NCBI GenBank assembly: GCA_031406795.1
Contig: JANOHV010000218.1
Coordinates: forward strand, 1 to 36,764
Source: Candidatus Rokuibacteriota bacterium
GTDB taxonomy: Bacteria > JAUVQV01 > DATDCY01
Length of the DNA: 36,764 nt
Direction of reading: 5' to 3'
Of this stretch, positions 3,120-27,247 are shown one piece after another (position 1 is the stretch's first letter; every line of letters starts with the position of its first letter). Under the pieces are notes generated by a model. It did not search any database. It worked only from the letters and a program-made list of their open reading frames with translations, and was not told where the DNA came from. Position numbers and translations under genes: made by a program.

Positions 3120-3197
3120 ATGAGCGAGGCCGTTGTTCCGACCAGCCGGAAGATGGGTCTCGCTCTGTCAGTCCGCCGCACGCTCATCTGTAGCTAG
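3120..3197 (+). CDS. Putative 25-aa leader peptide MSEAVVPTSRKMGLALSVRRTLICS
   Basis: AAAAGGGG 7 nt before the ATG. Lies in the long leader between the promoter and the reductase, ends in Cys-Ser, and is immediately followed by a hairpin (3196-3232). Confidence 0.35.
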   Translation: MSEAVVPTSRKMGLALSVRRTLICS

Positions 3198-3339
3198 CCT
3201 GGCGCTCCGGCAGTCCCGCGGAATGCCAGGCTCTCCCCCAGTCGCATGCATTCATCTGACGACAACGCCATCACGTAGTCACAGAGTTGCTGGCGTTCCA
3301 CCAAGAAAGCGAGCGCGAAAGAACACGGGAGGTGATACG

Positions 3340-4218
3340 GTGAGCGAGATCGATTACCGGGAGTTGAAGCGCGGCGGCGTGATGCGCCAGCAGGGGGAAG
3401 ACCGCTTTCTGGTGCGGCTGCACCTGGTTGCCGGTGGACTAAGTAGCGGCCAGGCCCGTGTGGTGGCTGAGGCAGCGGACCAGTTCGGCAGCGGTGCACT
3501 GCACTTAACGAGCCGTCAGGGGATCGAGATCCCGGACGTCAGTTCCGGTGCGCTGACAGAGCTCAAAGAGTTCTTGGCATCCTCTGGGATAGGATTCGGG
3601 GTCAGCGGGCCGACCGTTCGCGGTGTCACTGCCTGCCAGGGCTGCCACGTCTGCCCGAATGGCGTCATCGACAGCCCGAGTCTGGCGGCGGAGGTTGATC
3701 GTGCGTTCTACGGAAAACATGCGCCCCACAAGTTCAAGGTCGGCATCAGCGGCTGCGCGAACAACTGCCTCAAAGCCGAGGAGAACGACCTCGGCGTCAA
3801 GGGGTGGATCGAGCCGCGCTGGAGCGGAGATGGTTGCACCGGCTGCGGTCTCTGCGTTGCAGTCTGCCCGGTGAAGGCGATTCGGATCGGCGGTGACAGC
3901 GGATCCGTCGAGATCGAGACCGCTCGCTGCATAGGATGCGGAGACTGCATTAACTCCTGCCCGACGACCGGCATGGTGGAGCAGACACGTGGTTACCGGA
4001 TCTACTTTGGGGGTAAACTGGGACGTGTACCTTACCTGGGGCAGCCGGTGTCCGGAGTGTTCACCGGTACCGCGGGTGTCCTCGGCGTCATCGCGGAGGC
4101 CCTGGAGTTCTTCCGACTTCACGGGCGTGCCCGCGAGCGCTTCGGCGACACGCTTCAGCGCGTGGGCTTCGAGACATTGGCGGCGCACATCGGCGCGCCG
4201 GCGAGGAGGGTCGCATGA
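3340..4218 (+). CDS. Siroheme-[4Fe-4S] nitrite/sulfite reductase-like protein (AsrC/Dsr-like small type) with inserted 2x[4Fe-4S] ferredoxin domain
   Basis: GTG start at 3340 after GGGAGGTG. HLTSRQGIE, Cx5C (CQGCHVC), PHKFK, Cx3C (CANNC), and ferredoxin motifs CTGCGLCVAVCP and CIGCGDCINSCP. Confidence 0.85.
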   Translation: MSEIDYRELKRGGVMRQQGEDRFLVRLHLVAGGLSSGQARVVAEAADQFGSGALHLTSRQGIEIPDVSSGALTELKEFLASSGIGFGVSGPTVRGVTACQGCHVCPNGVIDSPSLAAEVDRAFYGKHAPHKFKVGISGCANNCLKAEENDLGVKGWIEPRWSGDGCTGCGLCVAVCPVKAIRIGGDSGSVEIETARCIGCGDCINSCPTTGMVEQTRGYRIYFGGKLGRVPYLGQPVSGVFTGTAGVLGVIAEALEFFRLHGRARERFGDTLQRVGFETLAAHIGAPARRVA

Positions 4219-4376: not shown

Positions 4377-4613
4377 TCAGGATTTCCTGATAAGAAACCG
4401 GAACAGGCCCTCGCTTCGGTTTGTTTCGATGATCGCGTGCCCGAGCCTCTGGACCAGTGCGCTGATGTCCGATTCCGATCCGAAGTCAGTGGCCATGACT
4501 TCCATGACCTGGCCGGAAAGGAGCCGGGCCAGGCCCCGCTTGGTGTTCAGCACCGGCATCGGGCAAGCTTGCCCTCGCGTGTCGACCACCAGATCGACTT
4601 TGATCTCAGGCAT
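4377..4613 (-). CDS. TusA/SirA-family sulfurtransferase (78 aa)
   Basis: VDTRGQACPMP (CPxP persulfide Cys), VMATD.GS, C-terminal FRFLIRK. SD AAGGGAG. Confidence 0.9.
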   Translation of the reverse strand: MPEIKVDLVVDTRGQACPMPVLNTKRGLARLLSGQVMEVMATDFGSESDISALVQRLGHAIIETNRSEGLFRFLIRKS

Positions 4614-4662
4614 CGTCTGCTCCCTTCGGTCAATGGTTTGACGCCACTCCTGGACTGGATAT

Positions 4663-4678
4663 TGCAAGAGGAGTGCCA
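4663..4678 (-). promoter_or_regulatory. sigma54 -24/-12 promoter for tusA
   Basis: Minus strand TGGCACTCCTCTTGCA with exact GG-N10-GC spacing. Confidence 0.8.
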
Positions 4679-4717
4679 GCAACATCGCGTAATGCAAGGT
4701 GTTAAGATGATGACGTC

Positions 4718-6212
4718 ATGACGAGCCAGGCAACCCCTCCGCAGCCTCCGGGAGACCGGTTCTCGATCCTGTACGACATCGCCCTGACGGTCGGCAAGTC
4801 GCTCGATCTCAAGAGGATTCTGGACGATGTTCTCGACCGGATCATCCGTTTCATGGGCGTCGACGCCGGCGTCATTTATGTCGTCGACGACGCAACCATG
4901 GAGATGATACCCGTCTCGTTCAGGAATTTGTTGGAAGAGGTCGTCAGGGACCTCAGCGAAAAAAAGGTGAAAGTGGGCGAATGCATGTGCGGGACCATTG
5001 CACAATGCAATCAGGAGGTGATCATCACCGAACGGGCATACGAAGACCCGCGATTCACGCGTGGTGTGCTGAAGAAGGAGGGTATGGAGTTCTACGCCGG
5101 CCTCCCCATCCTCGCCAGAGGCAAGGTGGTGGGCGTGCTCTGCGTCATCAACCACACCCCCTACCAGCTCGACCGTGAACTTCTCGACATTCTCAGGGCT
5201 GCGACGCAGCCGATCGGCCTTGCCATCGAGAATGCCCGGATTTTCGAAACCGTCAGGAAGGAGGCGGACGCGAGGATTCGCTACTTCAACTTCGAGGGGA
5301 TTATCGCCAACAGCCCCAAAATGACCAGCATCCTCAGCCTCGTGCGGAAGATCACCGATGTGCCCACGAGCATCCTGATCTACGGGGAAAGCGGCACCGG
5401 CAAGGAATTGATCGCGCGGGCCATCCACTTCAACAGCATCCGCAAGGACCGGCCCTTCGTCGCCGTCAACTGCGCTGCCCTCCCGGAGAGCCTGCTGGAA
5501 TCGGAGCTCTTCGGTTACGTCAAGGGCGCTTTCACCAGGGGCCGGCGCCGACAAGAAGGGGCTCTTTGAGGCAGCCGACAACGGCACCATGTTTCTGGAC
5601 GAAGCGGAGGCAATGAGCGGCAATCTGCAGGTCAAGCTGTTGCGGGTCCTGCAGGATGGCGCTTTTCTCAAGGTCGGGGGCACGCAACCGTGCCAGGTGA
5701 ACGTGCGGATCATCGCGGCCTCGAACAGAAACCTCGAGGAGGCGATCCGGGAGAAACGCTTCAGGGAAGACCTCTACTATCGGCTGAACGTGATCCGTAT
5801 CGATCTGCCGCCGCTTCGGGACCGGCGCGAAGACATTCCCCTGCTGACGAGATACTTCATGGCAAAATACAGCAGGAAGATCGGAAAAAATGTTCGCAGA
5901 ATCGCCGACGACGCAATGCAGGCGCTGGTGTGGTATCCCTGGCCAGGCAATATCCGAGAGCTCGAGAACATGGTCGAACGCGCGCTGGTAGTGACCGAAA
6001 CCGACGAAATCAGAAAAGAAGACCTGCCTGTCGAACTGCTGGGCAGAGCGGACGATATGCACAAAGACCTCACCCTGAAGTCCATCGAGAAGGACCACAT
6101 CTTCCACGTACTGAAACTTACCGGGGGCAACAAGAAACTGGCGGCGCGAGAGTTGGGGGTGAATGCTGCCACCCTCTGGAGAAAATTGAAGTCGTTCGCT
6201 GAGGCCCACTGA
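4718..6212 (+). pseudogene. GAF-AAA+-HTH sigma54 enhancer-binding protein (NifA/FhlA-like) with a +1 frameshift
   Basis: ORF 4718-5569 has [11 protein letters not shown] and ESELFG..KGAFT. ORF 5589-6212 has FLDE, FREDLYYRLNV, WPGNIREL and a Fis HTH. Removing the A at 5537 restores GAFTGA and a continuous frame. True pseudogene or sequencing error. Confidence 0.85.
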
Positions 6213-6435: not shown

Positions 6436-6451
6436 TGGCATGGCTCATGCA
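6436..6451 (+). promoter_or_regulatory. sigma54 -24/-12 promoter for the osmC-like/dsrE-like operon
   Basis: TGGCATGGCTCATGCA, GG-N10-GC. Confidence 0.7.
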
Positions 6452-6484
6452 ATTGCCCATGCAAACCTACACGGAGGAACGGCG

Positions 6485-7015
6485 ATGACGATGATCAACG
6501 GTCTCGAAGTGGACAACCTGGTCAAGGTAGTCGAGGCGGTCAAGCAGAAGTGGGAGATGGGCAAGACGGTCTGGAAGGCCTCAACCACATGGAAGGGCGG
6601 CTTCAAGGTCGAGACCTGTTCGCGCGACTTCACGCTGCTGGCGGACGAGCCGGAGATGCTCTGCGGCACCAACACGGCGGCCAACCCCGTCGAGATGGTC
6701 CTTCAGGCGTACGGCGCCTGCCTCTCGATCGGCTACGCGATGAATGCGGCGGTCCGCGGGATCAAGATTCATGACCTGAAGATCGATCTCGAAGGCGAGA
6801 TCGACCTTCCCGGCTTTCTCGGTCTCGAAGCACCCGAGAACCTGAAGATGGACAAGCTCCCCGGCTTCAAGACCATCGATGTGAAGGTAAAGATCAAGGC
6901 CGACGCCACTGCGGAGGCGCTTCGTCAGCTCCACGCGCACGTGGTGGGCACCTCTCCGGTCGGCGTTACGCTCGCGCGTCCGGTCAAGATCGTCACGGGC
7001 GTGGAGGTCTTGTGA
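6485..7015 (+). CDS. OsmC/Ohr-family protein (long INGL..DEP..G.N..ANPVE subtype)
   Basis: SD GGAGG. Motifs DEPEMLCGTNTAANPVE, GACL, EGEIDLPGFLG, and TSPV at the second-Cys position. Confidence 0.85.
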   Translation: MTMINGLEVDNLVKVVEAVKQKWEMGKTVWKASTTWKGGFKVETCSRDFTLLADEPEMLCGTNTAANPVEMVLQAYGACLSIGYAMNAAVRGIKIHDLKIDLEGEIDLPGFLGLEAPENLKMDKLPGFKTIDVKVKIKADATAEALRQLHAHVVGTSPVGVTLARPVKIVTGVEVL

Positions 7016-7431
7016 TCCAGCTGCTCGGTCAGACGGCGACGGATGAGCGCCTCTCCTGTGCCGAGCAGCCGCACTATGCGATCGTCTGCGCCACCGGATT
7101 CGAGAACGAGGAGCGGGTCCGGTCGGCGCTGATGTTCGCGGCATTGGCGGCCTCGGCGGATTACCAGACCGTCCTGTACTGCATCCAGGGCGCGGTTGAA
7201 GTGATGGTGAAGGGTGCGATCGCAGCGCGCGAGACGCCGCGACCGGGCCTGCCATCGATCGCCCAGCGGCTGCAGGAGGCTTTGGAAATGGGGGTGACGA
7301 TTCAGTGCTGCACCCAGACCATGGCGAACAAGGGCATCTCCCCCGCTGATCTCGTGGACGGCGTGGCTCCAGCTGGGGCAATGAGCCTGATTGCATTGAC
7401 GACCCGCGCGAAGGGCACGATCAGCTTCTGA
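7012..7431 (+). CDS. DsrE/DsrF-family sulfur-relay/peroxiredoxin-like protein
   Basis: GTGA overlap with the osmC-like stop. GVTIQCCTQT and GISPADLVDGV..AGA motifs; typical DsrE size. Confidence 0.75.
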   Translation: MIQLLGQTATDERLSCAEQPHYAIVCATGFENEERVRSALMFAALAASADYQTVLYCIQGAVEVMVKGAIAARETPRPGLPSIAQRLQEALEMGVTIQCCTQTMANKGISPADLVDGVAPAGAMSLIALTTRAKGTISF

Positions 7432-7440
7432 TTCTGAGCA

Positions 7441-7471
7441 CCGTCGGGGGAGGACAGCCCTCTCCCGGCGG
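7441..7471. terminator. GC-rich hairpin between convergent dsrE-like and binding-protein-fold genes
   Basis: CCGTCGGGGGAGG pairs with CCTCTCCCGGCGG (13 bp, two G-U pairs). No U-tract. Confidence 0.35.
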
Positions 7472-7535
7472 CGCTCCGAAATGCAAGAGGTACGATTGAT
7501 ATTGGAAAGCGCAAATATCATGACAGTCAAGCTGG

Positions 7536-8462
7536 TCAGCCGTGGTAATGATCGGGCTCCGGGTGGATCGAATCGATAAGGGTGCGGTCGAATATCTCCT
7601 GTTCTGCGACCTCGCGGCCGATGTAGCCGAGCCGCCTGAGCGCTCGTGCGAACGTCATCGTCGCGGCGACGTACGGTTCGGTCAGCCGGGCACAGTAGTG
7701 CGGCGAGACTTGAAGCGTCTCGAGGATAAAGTCCCTGTCGATGATCCCGACATGCGCCGCGATGTCCCTGGCGGCCGAATCCGGATCCGACCGAAAGACG
7801 GCAGTCGCTTCCTCGTGCAGCCGCAGGAACCGCTCCACACAAGAGCGGTGATCTTCGAGAAATGGTCGGGAGACAATGACCCCGTAGCTGGGATTGCCGG
7901 GCCAGAGCCGGGAGGGCGGATAGAGAATCCTGCCGCCGGCAAAGCGGCGGATCGCGACGGCGAGCGCCGGCGTCCCGACAGCGGCGGCCACTTCATTGTT
8001 GACAACGGCCTCGGTCACCAGATCGGCCCATGGGTAGTTCACGACCTCGATCTTGCCGGAGAGATCGTGTCGTTCAAGACAGTCCTTGAGGATGACGTCG
8101 TGTATCGACCCCGTACCCGGCACGCCGAGTTTCAAGCCATCGAACTGACGGAGAACGTCTCCGAGGTCGTCGAGTTCCGGGAAGCCCCGCCAGCAGTCCC
8201 TGCCGGCCATCACGGTGCCTTCGATGTGCCCGCCCGCCACACAGACCACGCTGCTCCCACGCTCGATGCCGATGATCGCGGGCGGCAACCCGATGTAGGC
8301 CAGATCGAGCTCGCCGCGGCCGAAAGACGCCATGATCGCGGGCCCCGTCCCCATGAGCCGCCACTCGACGCCGACGCCGAGCCGCTCCGGCACGGTGCCT
8401 CGAGCCATGAGCAGCACGGCGGTGTGGTAGAAGGTCGACAGGTGCCCGATTCGAACGATCAT
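7536..8462 (-). CDS. NitT/TauT (SsuA/NMT1-like) substrate-binding-fold protein lacking a signal peptide
   Basis: TGPAIMASFGRGELDLAYIGLPP and GVPGTGSIHDV motifs. Starts directly at strand 1 (MIVRIGHLS); in-frame TGA at 8480-8478 excludes an N-terminal extension. Confidence 0.8.
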   Translation of the reverse strand: MIVRIGHLSTFYHTAVLLMARGTVPERLGVGVEWRLMGTGPAIMASFGRGELDLAYIGLPPAIIGIERGSSVVCVAGGHIEGTVMAGRDCWRGFPELDDLGDVLRQFDGLKLGVPGTGSIHDVILKDCLERHDLSGKIEVVNYPWADLVTEAVVNNEVAAAVGTPALAVAIRRFAGGRILYPPSRLWPGNPSYGVIVSRPFLEDHRSCVERFLRLHEEATAVFRSDPDSAARDIAAHVGIIDRDFILETLQVSPHYCARLTEPYVAATMTFARALRRLGYIGREVAEQEIFDRTLIDSIHPEPDHYHG

Positions 8463-8640
8463 GGGACTGTAGTAGCCTCATGCCGGGCCGGCGTCAAGGC
8501 GGGCGGGAGACTTGGCTGCCCCGCCCGGGGTTGCCGCGTTGCCGGCCGCTGTGATACGTATTTGCCATGAGAACCGCGTTCCGCTGCACGAGCGACAGTC
8601 GCCCCGCGCGTTGCGACGAGCGCGATACGGACAATCCCTC

Positions 8641-9900
8641 ATGAGCCACTTCGGACTGCGGTGCCGCAAATGCGCAAAGCTACTCCAGGACACCTACTGC
8701 GCGTTCTGCGAGCACTGCCGCGACGCGCTGCTCGTGAGCGACTACGGCGGCGCGCGGTTTTCGGAAATGAGCGGGGAGGGGATCTGGCGATTCAACTGGC
8801 TCCCGGTGCACGCGCCCTCCTTTGCGCAGCCGGGGCCCAGCGTCTACCGATCCCGCGGGCTCGCGATGCACTTCGGGCTCGAAAACCTCTCCGTGGTGTT
8901 CAATGGCTACTGGCCGGAGAAAGGCGCTTTTCTCGAGACCTGCACCTTCAAAGAGTTCGAAGCCTCGGTGGTGTTGCAGAACGCGCGGGAGAATGGCGTC
9001 GAGGGGCTGACCGTCGCATCGGCGGGAAACACAGCGCGATCTTTCGCGTACCTTTCGGCGCAGACCGGCTACCCGGTGGTCATCGTGGTGCCGGCGATGT
9101 GCCTGACCGAGATGTGGTACCACAAGCGATCAAAGGACGTCCCCACGGTTGTGGTCGCCGACGGCGACTACTCCGACTCGATCGACGTCGCCCGGCGGAT
9201 TGCGGCGACTCTCGGATTTCCGTTCGAAGGCGGCGTCAAGAATGTCGCCAAGCGTGACGGACTCGGCCTGGTGCTGCTCGAGGCGGTGGCTGCGCTGAAG
9301 AGCCTCCCGGGCCACTACTTCCAGGCGGTGGGAAGCGGCACGGGAGCCATCGGTGTCTGGGAGATGAGTGAGCGTTTTCTCGCCGATGGGCGGTTCGGCT
9401 CCCGGCTCCCGGTTCTGCACCTGGCGCAGAACCTGCCGTTTGCGCCGATGACAAAGGCCTGGGCGCGCCAGGAGCGGCACCTCGAGCCGGCGGATCTGTT
9501 GCCGGAGCTGATCCCCGAGATCACGACGAGAGTACTCTCCACGCGTTATCCGGCGTACACGATCGCAGGCGGCGTCTATGATGCCCTCACCGCCACCCGG
9601 GGGAGGATGTACGGCGTGCGCAATGGGGAGGTCTACGCGGCGATGGAGTTGTTCCGTCGGCTGGAGGGAGTCGATATCGTCCCCGCTGCCGGGGTTGCCG
9701 TTGCCGCGCTGGCGCAGGCAGTCGCCGCCGGCGTGCTGCGGCCGGACGAGACCGTGGTGCTGAACATCACCGGCGGCGGGGAAACGAACCTGGCGCCGGA
9801 GCTCATGACCCGGACGCTGCGCCAGCACATCGTGTCGAAGGCGATCACGCACAAGGAAATCAAGGAGCTGCTGTGTCCCGTCCTGAAGAAGAGCTGCTAG
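8641..9900 (+). CDS. Cysteate synthase (PLP-dependent, threonine-synthase fold, Methanosarcinales MA3297 type)
   Basis: N-terminal Cys cluster; FNGYWPEKGAFLETCTFKEFEA (PLP Lys), ASAGNTARSFA, EGGVKNVAKRDGLG, HYFQAVGSGTG, RFLADGRFGSRLP, QNLPFAPM. These are signatures I recognise from cysteate synthases rather than ThrC. Confidence 0.88.
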   Translation: MSHFGLRCRKCAKLLQDTYCAFCEHCRDALLVSDYGGARFSEMSGEGIWRFNWLPVHAPSFAQPGPSVYRSRGLAMHFGLENLSVVFNGYWPEKGAFLETCTFKEFEASVVLQNARENGVEGLTVASAGNTARSFAYLSAQTGYPVVIVVPAMCLTEMWYHKRSKDVPTVVVADGDYSDSIDVARRIAATLGFPFEGGVKNVAKRDGLGLVLLEAVAALKSLPGHYFQAVGSGTGAIGVWEMSERFLADGRFGSRLPVLHLAQNLPFAPMTKAWARQERHLEPADLLPELIPEITTRVLSTRYPAYTIAGGVYDALTATRGRMYGVRNGEVYAAMELFRRLEGVDIVPAAGVAVAALAQAVAAGVLRPDETVVLNITGGGETNLAPELMTRTLRQHIVSKAITHKEIKELLCPVLKKSC

Positions 9901-11021
9901 GGATCCTCAGCGCAAACGGTACGGACTTCACGGCCTCGCTGCCCTGCGAGAAGATCAAAGTCCTGCTCGAGATGCTCGGCAGGACGTTTCCCCACGTGCC
10001 GCTCACGCGCGAAGAAGAGGGGGTGGGGATCTGCGCCGGCGCTTCCCTCGCGGGCCGCCGGCCGGCGATGTTCGTTCAAAGCTCCGGCATTGGCAACATG
10101 ATCAACGCGCTTCTCTCGTTGACCGATTTCTACGAGCTGCCGCTGGCGCTCTTCGTGAGCCGTCGCGGCGTTTACCAGGAGCGGATCGCCGCACAGCTGC
10201 CGATGGGTCTGCGGCTACCCGGCATGCTCGACGGCGCAGGGATTCCGTGGACAGAGGTCAACGTTCGCGGGGATCTTGCGGCGGTGGCGCGCATTTTGCC
10301 GCAGGTCTATGAACGCGGCGGCATTCACGCCTTTCTGATGAGTCCAGCGGTGTGGGAGGATTCCGAGTGCCAGGGTGGTGGTGCGCCAGCGATCGGTGCT
10401 CGGCGGTCGTGCCGGCCGGAATGCCCCGAACCGACCGGAGGGTGCCGCCGCCCGATCCCGGTACACACTCGTTTCGAGATCCTGCGGCTGATCGCCCCGC
10501 AGCTCGAGGGGAAGGTCGTCGTCTGCAACCTTGGCGCCCCCTCGAAGGAGTTGTACTCCCTGCGGCACCAGCCGTCGAATTTCTACATGCTCGGCAGCAT
10601 GGGCATGGTTACGCCGATCGGTCTCGGGGTGGCGCTCTCGACGCTGCGGGAGGTCGTGGTCATCGACGGCGACGGCAGCCTGCTGATGAACCCAGGCACG
10701 CTCGCGGTGTGCGCGGCCGCGGCGCCGAAGAATCTGACCATTCTCGCCATCGACAACGGGGCCTACGGTTCGACCGGCAGCCAGCCGACCCACGCGGCCA
10801 CCTGCGTCGACCTCGAGCAGGTGGCGCACGGGTTCGGCGTCGCGAATACCCTGAAGACGGCGGGGGGGGCGGATCTGATCGCGGCGATGGGCACGTGCGG
10901 GGAAGGCCCGCTGTTCGTTCACGCGCTTGCCGTGCCGGGAAATGCGGAGGTTCCGAATATTCCACTGGATCAACTGGAGAACAAGCGCCAGGTGATGGCA
11001 TTTCTTCACGCAGGCTGCTAG
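9873..11021 (+). CDS. comDE: Fused sulfopyruvate decarboxylase alpha-beta (ThDP-dependent)
   Basis: GTG start after AAGGAG, overlapping cysteate synthase. Alpha part SLPCEKIK, LTREEEGVGICAG, QSSGIGNMINAL. Beta part NLGAPSKEL, NFYMLGSMG, DGDGSLLMN..DNGAYGSTGSQ. Confidence 0.88.
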   Translation: MSRPEEELLGILSANGTDFTASLPCEKIKVLLEMLGRTFPHVPLTREEEGVGICAGASLAGRRPAMFVQSSGIGNMINALLSLTDFYELPLALFVSRRGVYQERIAAQLPMGLRLPGMLDGAGIPWTEVNVRGDLAAVARILPQVYERGGIHAFLMSPAVWEDSECQGGGAPAIGARRSCRPECPEPTGGCRRPIPVHTRFEILRLIAPQLEGKVVVCNLGAPSKELYSLRHQPSNFYMLGSMGMVTPIGLGVALSTLREVVVIDGDGSLLMNPGTLAVCAAAAPKNLTILAIDNGAYGSTGSQPTHAATCVDLEQVAHGFGVANTLKTAGGADLIAAMGTCGEGPLFVHALAVPGNAEVPNIPLDQLENKRQVMAFLHAGC

Positions 11022-11153: not shown

Positions 11154-11954
11154 ATGGAATTCACGGAAGAGCAGATCCTCCGCTACAGCCGTCACCTCAT
11201 TCTCCCCGAGGTCGGGGGCGATGGGCAGGAACGACTCCTGAACGCGAAGGTGGCGCTCGTGGGGGCCGGCGGTCTGGGCTCCCCGGTCGGGTATTATCTC
11301 GCCGCGGCGGGGGTCGGCACCATCGGCGTGATCGACGACGACCGGGTGGAATTCTCGAATCTCCAGCGCCAGATCGCCCACAGCACGCGGCAGGTCGGCA
11401 CGCTCAAAGCCGAGTCGGCCAAGACGACCTGGGAGGCGCTCAACGGCGACGTGCGAGTGATCGCCCACGCGACGCGGCTCACGGCCGCGAACATCCGCGA
11501 AATCATCGGGGAGTACGACATCGTCGCGGACGGCAGCGACAATTTCCCGACGCGCTACCTGGTGAACGACGCCTGTGTCATGATGAAAAAAACGCTGATC
11601 AGCGCCGCGGTCTTCCGCTTCGAGGGGCAGGTGATGGGGATTTACCCAGGAGAAGGTCCGTGCTACCGCTGTCTCTTCGAAACCCCGCCGCCGGCCGGCA
11701 TGGTGCCCTCCTGCCAGGAGGCCGGCGTTCTCGGCGTGGTGCCCGGCGTCATCGGCACGCTGCAGGCGACGGAAGTGCTCAAGGCGATCCTGGGCATCGG
11801 CGACCCGCTGCGCGGCCGTCTACTGATCTGGAACGCGCTTGAGATGAGCTTCACGACCGTGAATGTCCCGCGCAACCACGAGTGCCCGGTCTGCGGCGAC
11901 CACCCGACGATCATCAACCTGCTCGGCGGCGAACGCTCCTGCAGCATGGGATGA
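11154..11954 (+). CDS. moeB: MoeB/ThiF/HesA E1-like adenylyltransferase (no rhodanese domain)
   Basis: RYSRHLILPEVG, GAGGLGSP, SNLQRQ, DGSDNFPTRY, Zn motifs CYRC and CPVC, PSCQEAGVLG. Confidence 0.92.
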   Translation: MEFTEEQILRYSRHLILPEVGGDGQERLLNAKVALVGAGGLGSPVGYYLAAAGVGTIGVIDDDRVEFSNLQRQIAHSTRQVGTLKAESAKTTWEALNGDVRVIAHATRLTAANIREIIGEYDIVADGSDNFPTRYLVNDACVMMKKTLISAAVFRFEGQVMGIYPGEGPCYRCLFETPPPAGMVPSCQEAGVLGVVPGVIGTLQATEVLKAILGIGDPLRGRLLIWNALEMSFTTVNVPRNHECPVCGDHPTIINLLGGERSCSMG

Positions 11955-12391
11955 GCACTGCCGCCCTGACGATGGCCGGTGATGTACTTGCGGCAATCCT
12001 CGAACATTGCCGCCGGGAACTGCCGAACGAGGCGTGCGGGATCCTCGGCGGCAGGGCCGGCAGGGTCGAGAGCGTCCATCCGGTGCAAAGTGCGCACCCG
12101 AGTCCTTCGCGTTTCGCTATGGAACCGACGGCGCAGTTCCTGGCGATGGACGAGGTGAGCCGCGCTGGCCGGGAACTGGTGGGGATCTATCACTCTCACC
12201 CGGGCGGGCCTGCCGTTCCGTCAACTACCGACCTGCAGGAGGCCTGCTGGCCGGGGACGACGTTGCCGAATTACCCCGAGGCAATTCAGGTGATTGTGTC
12301 GCTCCTGGAGCGCGCCGCACCGGTCGTGAGGGGGTACGCAGCGGATCGGGGGATGTTCGTTGAAGTGCCGATTATCATTGACGAACGATAA
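11951..12391 (+). CDS. JAB/Mov34 (M67, Mec-like) metallopeptidase
   Basis: EACG..IYHSHP....PSTTD JAMM motif; ATGA overlap with moeB. Confidence 0.9.
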   Translation: MSTAALTMAGDVLAAILEHCRRELPNEACGILGGRAGRVESVHPVQSAHPSPSRFAMEPTAQFLAMDEVSRAGRELVGIYHSHPGGPAVPSTTDLQEACWPGTTLPNYPEAIQVIVSLLERAAPVVRGYAADRGMFVEVPIIIDER

Positions 12392-12421: not shown

Positions 12422-12700
12422 ATGCCGGTCACCGTCAGGATTCCCACGCCGCTGCAGCGGTTCTCGGGTGGCAAGTTGAATGTGTCGTGCAGCGCGACGA
12501 GCATCGAGGGATTGTTGGAAGCCCTGGAGATGGCGCACCCGGGGATGAAGGAACGACTGACCGTTGGCGGTAAGGTTCGTCCCTTCATCAATATCTATGT
12601 CAACGGCGAGGACATCCGCACCCTTGACGCGGAGGCCAGTGTGCTCAAAGATGGCGACACAGTCGCGATCATTGCCGCCATTGCGGGTGGTCACGGATAG
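12422..12700 (+). CDS. MoaD/ThiS/CysO-family ubiquitin-like sulfur carrier with masked C-terminus (AIAGG-HG)
   Basis: VRIPTPLQRF, INIYVNGEDIR, LKDGDTVAIIAAIAGGHG. SD GGAGGAG. Confidence 0.92.
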   Translation: MPVTVRIPTPLQRFSGGKLNVSCSATSIEGLLEALEMAHPGMKERLTVGGKVRPFINIYVNGEDIRTLDAEASVLKDGDTVAIIAAIAGGHG

Positions 12701-27231: not shown

Positions 27232-27247
27232 AGCAAATGCCGTGCCA
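27232..27247 (-). promoter_or_regulatory. sigma54 -24/-12 promoter for the MFS gene
   Basis: Minus strand TGGCACGGCATTTGCT, near-perfect consensus, with an AT-rich upstream region. Confidence 0.85.

Follow-up and report, generated by a model that had tools for sequence, protein, structure and literature searches.

Enzymes that take sulfur from ThiS/MoaD-type carriers are well described, and the known clients (CysM with CysO, MetY with HcyS, MoaE with MoaD, ThiG with ThiS) are pyridoxal phosphate (PLP) enzymes, TIM barrels or MoaE. Binding-protein folds are likewise known in cytoplasmic jobs. A binding-protein fold that has a carrier tail as its ligand would be a new combination: we know of no solved complex of such a fold with a ubiquitin-like carrier, a literature search found no account of a binding-protein fold with a carrier tail, and the terms TauA, NMT1, sulfonate and periplasmic do not occur in the main texts of two large carrier-neighbourhood surveys. 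Here we analyze a candidate for this combination, encoded at positions 7536..8462 (minus strand) of a 36,764-nucleotide contig from a Candidatus Rokuibacteriota bacterium (JANOHV010000218.1, assembly GCA_031406795.1; this whole stretch is hereafter called the window). The gene stands as a single-gene unit and encodes a 308-residue protein of the SsuA/TauA/NMT1_2 fold, hereafter the SBP-like protein after the substrate-binding proteins (SBPs) that it resembles. We put the chances at slightly better than even that this protein is a cytoplasmic client enzyme of a carrier thiocarboxylate. Its most likely ligand, judging from predicted complexes, is the C-terminal Gly-Gly tail of the carrier and not a free sulfonate.

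The SBP-like protein has the fold of an importer's binding protein and none of the other marks of one. Pfam, AlphaFold 2 (AF2) and Foldseek all place it in the type-2 periplasmic binding-protein fold of the SsuA/NMT1 kind. Its only Pfam matches are NMT1_2 (E 1.4e-17, residues 3-235) and, marginally, NMT1 (21.9 bits against a cut-off of 20.5). The best sequence-family match, NCBIfam SsuA_fam, covers it end to end at 77.4 bits, below the cut-off of 163.5, and taurine_ABC_bnd reaches 17.6 bits against a cut-off of 304. The AF2 model has a mean predicted local distance difference test score (pLDDT) of 97.2, and its best Foldseek matches are TauA, SsuA, the zinc-bound Staphylococcus aureus protein 3un6 and Thi5, at template modelling (TM) scores of about 0.75-0.79, together with PqqT and ThiY; DszB is a more distant match at 0.63. 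What the protein lacks is an export signal, a nearby permease or ATPase, and a score above the cut-offs of the curated importer families.

An earlier note on this DNA had described an orphan binding-fold gene that begins at its first strand, and the sequence bears this out. The translated minus-strand open reading frame (ORF) starts with MIVRIGHLSTFYHTA, at the first strand of the fold, and the coding strand before it reads TGA GGC TAC TAC AGT CCC ATG. The in-frame TGA lies six codons upstream, and therefore no leader can be added. The His/Cys motifs that the note quoted are all present: GHLSTFYH (6-13), GGHIEG (77-82), SIHD (119-122), SPHYC (253-257) and HPEPDHY (300-306). The note had also seen no ABC permease or ATPase in the window, and Pfam scans of 54 window ORFs (30 + 24) returned zero matches to either class of family. 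The genome's only paralogue, on contig C33 (26-28% identity), starts with what resembles a signal peptide and lies beside an ABC permease-like ORF; the SBP-like gene is therefore not simply the organism's importer component.

The absence of a leader is a property of the whole family. A word-indexed search gave 1989 homologues; among the best 120, lengths run from 305 to 341 residues and identities from 63 to 94%. Across 43 genome loci, mostly from Nitrospirota metagenome-assembled genomes with one close relative of the window genome at 87% identity, every protein begins M/V-x-x-R-I-G-H-L-S-T. Of these 43 loci, 24 have an in-frame stop no more than 14 codons before the conserved M-x-x-R-I-G-H start, and one locus (L027) has a hydrophobic stretch upstream of the start. 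Among 1.84 billion representatives searched exhaustively, only 47 reached E 1e-30 or better. Full-length representatives at 35-47% identity align from their own residues 1-11. Sequences of the next tier (28-32% identity) begin to align only at their residues 30-80 and thus have 30-80 extra N-terminal residues, or leaders; these leader-bearing relatives lack most of the residues conserved in the family.

Those residues are numerous. A 27-member alignment of the family has 70 invariant columns, and a 34-sequence alignment that adds Asgard and other distant leaderless members (35-86% identical) has 18 invariant columns and 43 more that are at least 90% conserved. Conserved in the larger alignment are Cys74, His79 in a G-G-His motif, Glu81, His13, Ser119, His121, His216, Tyr256, Cys257, His300 and His305, and the conserved columns fall mostly in loops of the AF2 secondary-structure map. 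The family is compact, strongly conserved and leaderless, and it occurs in Nitrospirota, the window's own small phylum, Thermodesulfobacteriota and Asgard archaea.

These observations dispose of the idea that the gene is a decayed or orphaned importer component without a function of its own. The fold and the automatic database names ("NitT/TauT family transport system substrate-binding protein") are all that speaks for it. The frame is intact, conservation is strong and the cleft residues are invariant, the N-terminus is leaderless in every lineage examined, no annotated locus of a relative has a TauABC/NitT operon or any transporter gene beside the SBP-like gene, and signal peptide and permease are both retained by the paralogue that is the genome's real importer component. 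We reject this explanation as next to impossible, and the cytoplasmic location that the earlier note had suggested is supported.

The recurrent partner of the family across phyla is a ThiS/MoaD-type sulfur carrier ending in IAGG, not cysteate synthase. Archaeal look-alikes of the SBP-like protein appear in the ESM Atlas, with a hint of relatives in Methanobacteriota, and a distant representative (P0130) is a member of a large clade of Asgard archaea (Lokiarchaeota, Thorarchaeota, Hodarchaeota and Promethearchaeota by source name) from which 48 metagenome loci were found with it. Of the 30 Asgard loci with at least 700 bp of upstream sequence, 28 have a gene for a 95-residue ThiS-family protein ending in AIAGG, at a distance of 49-152 bp upstream from the SBP-like gene; it is divergent in 26 and co-directional in 2. 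Downstream, a DsrE-family gene converges on the SBP-like gene within 245 bp in 13 of 29 loci with at least 600 bp of sequence on that side. ThiF occurs within 4 kb in 11/26 loci, usually with TusA and a ThiI-like PP-loop protein, and a MetY-type PLP enzyme stands beside the carrier in three. Among the 20 Asgard loci that span at least 6 kb, neither cysteate synthase nor ComDE was found.

Thermodesulfobacteriota carry the family in 19 of 351 genomes. In 6 of 18 loci, ThiF-rhodanese, a carrier of about 90 residues ending in PIAGG and then the SBP-like gene follow one another on the same strand. In 5/9 annotated loci, the SBP-like gene instead comes after a glycosyltransferase gene and a gene for a Wzy/TPR protein. 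At one Thermodesulfobacteriota locus (L126:10497-11468, minus strand), genes for an enzyme of the phosphoenolpyruvate mutase/isocitrate lyase family and a TetR regulator precede ThiF-rhodanese, carrier and SBP-like gene on the same strand, an order that hints at a small biosynthetic operon making a carbonyl acceptor.

In the window, the carrier belongs to a gene set that diverges from the SBP-like gene. The intergenic region (8463..8640) separates the SBP-like gene from a cysteate synthase orthologue (8641..9900, plus strand; TIGR03844 455 bits, cut-off 325), the neighbour that the earlier note had named. The synthase's longest ORF starts at 8512, so that the distance is 49 bp from that TTG or 178 bp from the ATG at 8641; synthase orthologues align from about query residue 42, which corresponds to the ATG. 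A fused, ComDE-like sulfopyruvate decarboxylase (9873..11021, plus) overlaps the end of the synthase gene. It scores 165 bits with TIGR03845 (cut-off 148), 213 with TIGR03846 (cut-off 221.5) and 192 with the phosphonopyruvate decarboxylase model (cut-off 312.5). There follow a ThiF/MoeB-type E1-like adenylyltransferase without a rhodanese domain (11154..11954, plus; Pfam ThiF E 1.1e-81; below the cut-offs of the NCBIfam MoeB and UbaA models; the only copy of its type found in the genome), a desampylase-like JAB/MPN metalloprotease (11882..12391, plus; Prok-JAB E 3e-24; desampylase model 85 bits, cut-off 130) and a 92-residue MoaD/ThiS-type carrier (12422..12700, plus; below the cut-offs of the SAMP1 and MoaD models) that ends in AIAGG plus two residues. 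The five genes share one strand and either overlap or are separated by short gaps, an arrangement suggestive of a single operon.

This is the genome's only ThiF-JAB-MoaD set, and it comes after synthase and ComDE, 2.7-4.2 kb from the SBP-like gene. The A-I-A-G-G motif is invariant in an alignment of the window, Nitrospirota and Asgard carriers. The two extra residues fit the adjacent JAB protease, which presumably trims them. On the other side of the SBP-like gene, a DsrE-family sulfur-relay protein gene (7012..7431, plus; Pfam DsrE E 1.3e-14) converges with it over a 104-bp gap, the same pairing as in the Asgard loci. The SBP-like gene is linked to carrier and E1 genes in the Asgard, Thermodesulfobacteriota and window neighbourhoods (within 4.2 kb in the window) but unlinked from them in Nitrospirota.

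Structure prediction points to a direct complex between the two proteins. We modeled the SBP-like protein (34-row alignment) with the carrier cut at Gly-Gly (residues 1-90, 10-row alignment). The interface score ipSAE was 0.81, 0.77 and 0.80 in three runs (summary score 0.80), and 0.00, 0.01 and 0.00 in controls, two with an unrelated partner and one with the SBP-like protein replaced. In calibration, this mark was reached by 116 of 157 solved complexes, against 2 of 215 mismatched pairs, a guide that is only rough with user-made alignments. The partner has a pLDDT of 89, and the runs share at least 97% of their contacts. The complex prediction that the earlier note had suggested with the MoaD-like carrier thus came out in favor of binding, as far as a model can.

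The predicted pose supports placing the carrier tail in the binding cleft of the SBP-like protein. Carrier residues in contact are 84-90, the tail, together with 8-11, 19, 45, 48 and 53-57. On the SBP-like side the contacts are 8-11, 34, 36, 38-40, 115-116, 119, 121, 145-151, 154-155, 163-167, 170, 173-174, 238-241 and 245, mostly in inter-strand loops and including the conserved S9, T10, W34, T39, G40, S119, H121, W145, D147 and T164. TauA holds its sulfonate through Gln30 and through backbone amides at Gly61, Gly79 and Thr132 (PMC6906117). Profile alignment equates Gly61 with G40 and Thr132 with S119 of the SBP-like protein, two of the four sulfonate-binding positions. The carrier tail contacts both in the models, so that its terminal (thio)carboxylate is modeled where the TauA sulfonate sits.

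We propose the following course of events. The JAB protease would trim the carrier, and ThiF would adenylate it before conversion to the thiocarboxylate, by what is established for ThiS/MoaD systems. The carrier would then dock with its tail between the two lobes of the SBP-like protein and its (thio)carboxylate at the place of the TauA sulfonate, as modeled. A conserved pocket (Cys74, His79, Glu81, His13, His216, Tyr256, Cys257, His300, His305) may receive the sulfur or hold a small acceptor for thiolation. Catalysis itself, any metal, the acceptor and the parts played by Cys74, His79 and Cys257 are what we infer. The last step is the most tentative: sulfoacetaldehyde would be a plausible acceptor in the window genome, because the carrier genes follow synthase and ComDE in the apparent operon from which the SBP-like gene diverges. 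The earlier note had imagined a catalyst or a sulfonate sensor tied to the adjoining sulfur chemistry, possibly at a missing thiolation step. The intuition of a tie survives, with the carrier as conserved partner; a role at the thiolation step may be conjectured from it, and sulfonate sensing is favored neither way.

Co-occurrence with the cysteate route is strong in one phylum. Of 301 evenly sampled Nitrospirota genomes, each at least 80% complete, 59 have the SBP-like gene and 56 have cysteate synthase, all 56 within the 59: 56 genomes have both, 3 the SBP-like gene only (G041, G131, G178), none the synthase only and 242 neither. Often the same contig carries both genes, at a distance of 2-30 kb. 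They also share the same 2/4 genomes of the window's genus, and among six genomes of its phylum both are found only in G000 and G003. The carrier orthologue is present in 280/301 Nitrospirota genomes and in 58 of the 59 with the SBP-like gene.

The Nitrospirota neighborhood of the SBP-like gene holds MtrH-like, MTHFR and CobW genes, a sigma-54 response regulator and a divergent soluble PAS-GAF-PAS histidine kinase. Further out lie ComDE, cysteate synthase, a TfrB/HdrD/DsrK-like CCG protein, a DsrM-like cytochrome b, DUF6951, RACo and a corrinoid protein. Within 10-kb flanks of the 43 loci we counted the kinase in 26, the regulator in 27, ComDE in 10 and cysteate synthase (at least 50% coverage) in 8. 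Of the 60/301 genomes with a kinase orthologue, 57 also have the SBP-like gene; the kinase occurs without the SBP-like gene in G038, G045 and G076, and the SBP-like gene without the kinase in G226 and G256.

Several observations weigh against a carrier client, or against sulfoacetaldehyde as its acceptor. The predicted binding comes from one structure-prediction job, with unrelated proteins as controls and not another binding-fold protein such as the C33 paralogue, and Cys74, His79 and Cys257 are not among the listed contacts. The immediate Nitrospirota neighbor is the soluble PAS-GAF kinase with its sigma-54 regulator (26/43 loci), and the carrier genes there are on other contigs, in TusA-ThiF-JAB-(ThrC-like PLP enzyme)-MoaD clusters. 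At the thresholds used, 12 of 18 Thermodesulfobacteriota loci lack a ThiF gene within 8 kb. Because related genomes do not count as independent, the Nitrospirota tallies may largely describe one clade. Cysteate-synthase-like genes occur in 2/351 Thermodesulfobacteriota genomes and in 0/19 of those with the family; ComDE-like genes occur in 2/5 tested family-positive Thermodesulfobacteriota, whereas the three that have the ThiF-carrier-SBP operon lack them. This excludes sulfoacetaldehyde as the general acceptor. Coenzyme M (CoM) cannot be the family-wide function, and a CoM link is lineage-specific at best. The co-occurrence with CoM genes that the earlier note had proposed to check was borne out for cysteate synthase in Nitrospirota and failed for it in Thermodesulfobacteriota, and the 20 longer Asgard loci show no synthase within reach.

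The same facts frame the alternative that the SBP-like protein is a bacterial CoM synthase for the last step of a pathway of archaeal type 2, which would convert sulfoacetaldehyde to 2-mercaptoethanesulfonate with the MoaD thiocarboxylate and replace the non-homologous archaeal MMP16/ComF in Nitrospirota and the window phylum. We hold this to be unlikely. The archaeal enzyme for the last CoM step is MMP16 (PMC11844431); an earlier proposal gave the step to DUF39 proteins (PMC4045070). A gene of the MMP16 family (COG1900) was not found in any of five tested Nitrospirota genomes with synthase, ComDE and SBP-like genes, and the window genome's only COG1900 gene scores 110 bits against an MMP16 cut-off of 364. 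The presence of the SBP-like gene in every synthase-positive genome of the Nitrospirota sample and of the genus, their proximity on shared contigs, and the divergent operon of the window all fit this assignment, as does the binding of ethanesulfonates by the same fold in TauA and SsuA. DsrM-like and TfrB/HdrD-like disulfide-reductase proteins beside Nitrospirota synthase and ComDE further suggest a pathway that ends in a thiol. If true, an archaeal-type CoM pathway would be completed in bacteria without MMP16, whose pathway genes also stand next to genes for an HdrD/TfrB-like disulfide reductase and for corrinoid methyltransferases. The distribution outside these lineages speaks against it, however, since no family-positive Thermodesulfobacteriota genome has the synthase and the Asgard loci show neither synthase nor ComDE within reach. 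The conversion of an aldehyde to a thiol also needs two electrons, no redox cofactor site is evident in the SBP-like protein, and CoM itself is only putative in these bacteria.

Two other roles would leave the acceptor aside, and we consider both improbable, the second slightly more so. As a cytoplasmic ligand sensor, the protein would bind a small anion (sulfonate, sulfite or thiosulfate) and control the soluble PAS-GAF kinase and sigma-54 regulator, with NasS-NasT as the precedent (PMC3795266). The adjacency in Nitrospirota and the 57 of 60 kinase-positive genomes that share the SBP-like gene favor it; the window genome also keeps kinase and regulator orthologues (67% and 73% identity) and has a GAF/sigma-54 activator 1.3 kb from the SBP-like gene. 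Those orthologues are on another contig (C24), however, and the annotated loci of Asgard archaea and Thermodesulfobacteriota showed no kinase. Within the genus, the kinase is present in G002 (95% complete), which has neither SBP-like gene nor synthase, and three Nitrospirota genomes have it without the SBP-like gene. The -24/-12 consensus of sigma-54 promoters is TGGCAC-N5-TTGC; searched with up to 2 mismatches in the 300 bp upstream of the SBP-like gene, it gave no site in the window and only two chance-like matches among 42 loci (L021, L029), and on these grounds we reject sigma-54 control of the gene. The Cys/His set conserved across domains would also suit a reaction center better than a binding site. 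As a sulfur loader, in turn, the protein would pass sulfane sulfur from DsrE/TusA, or from thiosulfate at the anion site, via Cys74/Cys257 to the adenylated carrier. This would explain the convergent DsrE gene in the window and in 13/29 Asgard loci, TusA next to ThiF in Asgard and Nitrospirota clusters, the lack of a rhodanese domain in window and Asgard ThiF, the two conserved cysteines and the predicted place of the tail. Yet a tail buried in the SBP cleft could hardly sit in the ThiF active site at the same time. The rhodanese domain is the usual sulfur-loading module. We prefer a user of the thiocarboxylate to a general loader because at least 221 Nitrospirota genomes run the same carrier system without an SBP-like protein and because the ThiF of the Thermodesulfobacteriota operon already has a rhodanese domain.

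Because the family is conserved across Asgard archaea and three phyla of bacteria, apparently anaerobes throughout, it probably marks an undescribed sulfur-insertion reaction. Nitrospirota and the window lineage have archaeal cysteate synthase and ComDE genes without ComF, and there the SBP-like protein would be the best-placed candidate to finish a CoM-like thiol.

Other genes of the window lie on the far side of the DsrE gene. An OsmC-like gene (6440-7015, from the window ORF scan) adjoins it. A small sulfite-reductase-like protein with NIR_SIR and two 4Fe-4S motifs (3133-4218, plus; below the cut-offs of the AsrC and DsrB models) is encoded 3.3 kb from the SBP-like gene, on the same side as the OsmC-like and DsrE-like genes, and may supply or consume the sulfite required by cysteate synthase. 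The GAF/sigma-54 activator (Pfam) is split over two frames (4718-5569 and 5589-6212, plus) that span positions 1-88 and 97-167 of the 168-position Sigma54_activat profile, so that it is either a frameshifted pseudogene or an assembly error. Matches to the sigma-54 consensus number 22 in the whole window, below the shuffle mean of 32.6. Two are perfect, at 4664-4678 and 27233-27247 (both minus), in a total not above chance; the former lies just upstream of and divergent from the split activator and points toward 4377-4697 (minus) and the sulfite-reductase-like region. A promoter and terminator scan of 7300-8750 gave nothing above chance except one sigma-70-like site at 8435-8462 (plus).

Further observations concern the wider genomes. 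In Nitrospirota, synthase and ComDE end an operon with the DsrM-like cytochrome b and the CCG-domain protein at three loci (L053:4325-8722 in G160, L029:11668-15256 and L005:12241-15925). The CCG-domain protein's best NCBIfam match, at 182 bits and below cut-off, is TfrB, the thiol:fumarate reductase subunit, ahead of DsrK, and the pair looks like a membrane-linked disulfide reductase beside CoM-precursor genes. The window genome has orthologues of the pair (76% and 48% identity) at C68:5293-7177. It also has a corrinoid methyltransferase cluster at C33:25500-40000, with MtrH-like, two corrinoid proteins, two RACo activators and DUF6951; identities of 80-89% to Nitrospirota proteins across phyla suggest gene transfer of the whole set. 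The same cluster holds the classical leader-bearing NitT/TauT binding protein and its permease. In one Thermodesulfovibrionia genome (L107:4194-4826, minus, G009), the carrier frame continues for about 120 residues past AIAGG, through fusion or read-through of two genes. In the 87%-identical relative of the window genome (L001:7259-9674, G003/G312), ComDE and synthase are in several pieces, probably through long-read indel errors, or else through real decay.

Compared with known systems, the SBP-like protein is closest in structure to TauA and SsuA (PDB 6ssy, 2x26, 3ksx), with which it shares the two-lobe fold at TM 0.77-0.79. It keeps two backbone-amide positions of the TauA sulfonate site as G40 and S119, while the Gln30 position appears to be Leu8, by its place in the motif and not by computed alignment. 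In contrast to both importers' proteins it has no signal peptide, permease or ATPase, it is only 15-18% identical to solved proteins, it has an extra conserved Cys/His set, and its predicted ligand is a protein tail instead of a free sulfonate. The best PDB profile match is 3un6 (E 1.1e-7), an S. aureus ABC-type binding component crystallized with zinc that shares equivalents of H13, H79, E81, S119 and H121; unlike the SBP-like protein, it aligns from its residue 37 and so has an N-terminal extension.

THI5/NMT1 and DszB show that the binding fold has been turned into cytoplasmic enzymes (TM 0.74-0.77 for Thi5, 0.63 for DszB). THI5/NMT1, the synthase of hydroxymethylpyrimidine phosphate (HMP-P), uses a PLP-binding lysine and a donor histidine. 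We reject such chemistry here, since the SBP-like alignments have no lysine column that is invariant or reaches 90% conservation. The catalytic cysteine of DszB is located in the loop after the first strand. It is Cys27 by PDB title, and DszB-like chemistry is rejected because the first loop of the SBP-like protein, H-L-S-T-F-Y-H-T, has no cysteine.

NasS, the cytoplasmic NrtA-like nitrate/nitrite sensor, is likewise a leaderless protein of the broad binding-protein group that acts in the cell via another protein (PMC3795266). Pfam scans of the window, Nitrospirota, Asgard and Thermodesulfobacteriota neighborhoods found no ANTAR-type partner. In contrast to NasS, the predicted partner of the SBP-like protein is a sulfur carrier, and its Cys/His set suggests chemistry over sensing. 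MMP16/ComF (COG1900) and the SBP-like gene are alike in standing next to synthase and ComDE. Both also follow the biosynthesis of sulfoacetaldehyde in their distribution, MMP16 as reported for the archaeal enzyme (PMC11844431) and the SBP-like gene by the Nitrospirota tallies. The two are unrelated in sequence, however, and the SBP-like protein has no HcyBio (PF01837)/TIGR03287 domain; its family also occurs in genomes without the cysteate route, and any shared role would be one of analogy. The described carrier clients, finally, share with the SBP-like protein a place beside a ThiS/MoaD carrier, ThiF and, in the window, a JAB protease, and perhaps the seating of the tail in a cleft, which is predicted here. 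With CysM-CysO and MoaE-MoaD the role would be comparable, though fold and ancestry are unrelated.

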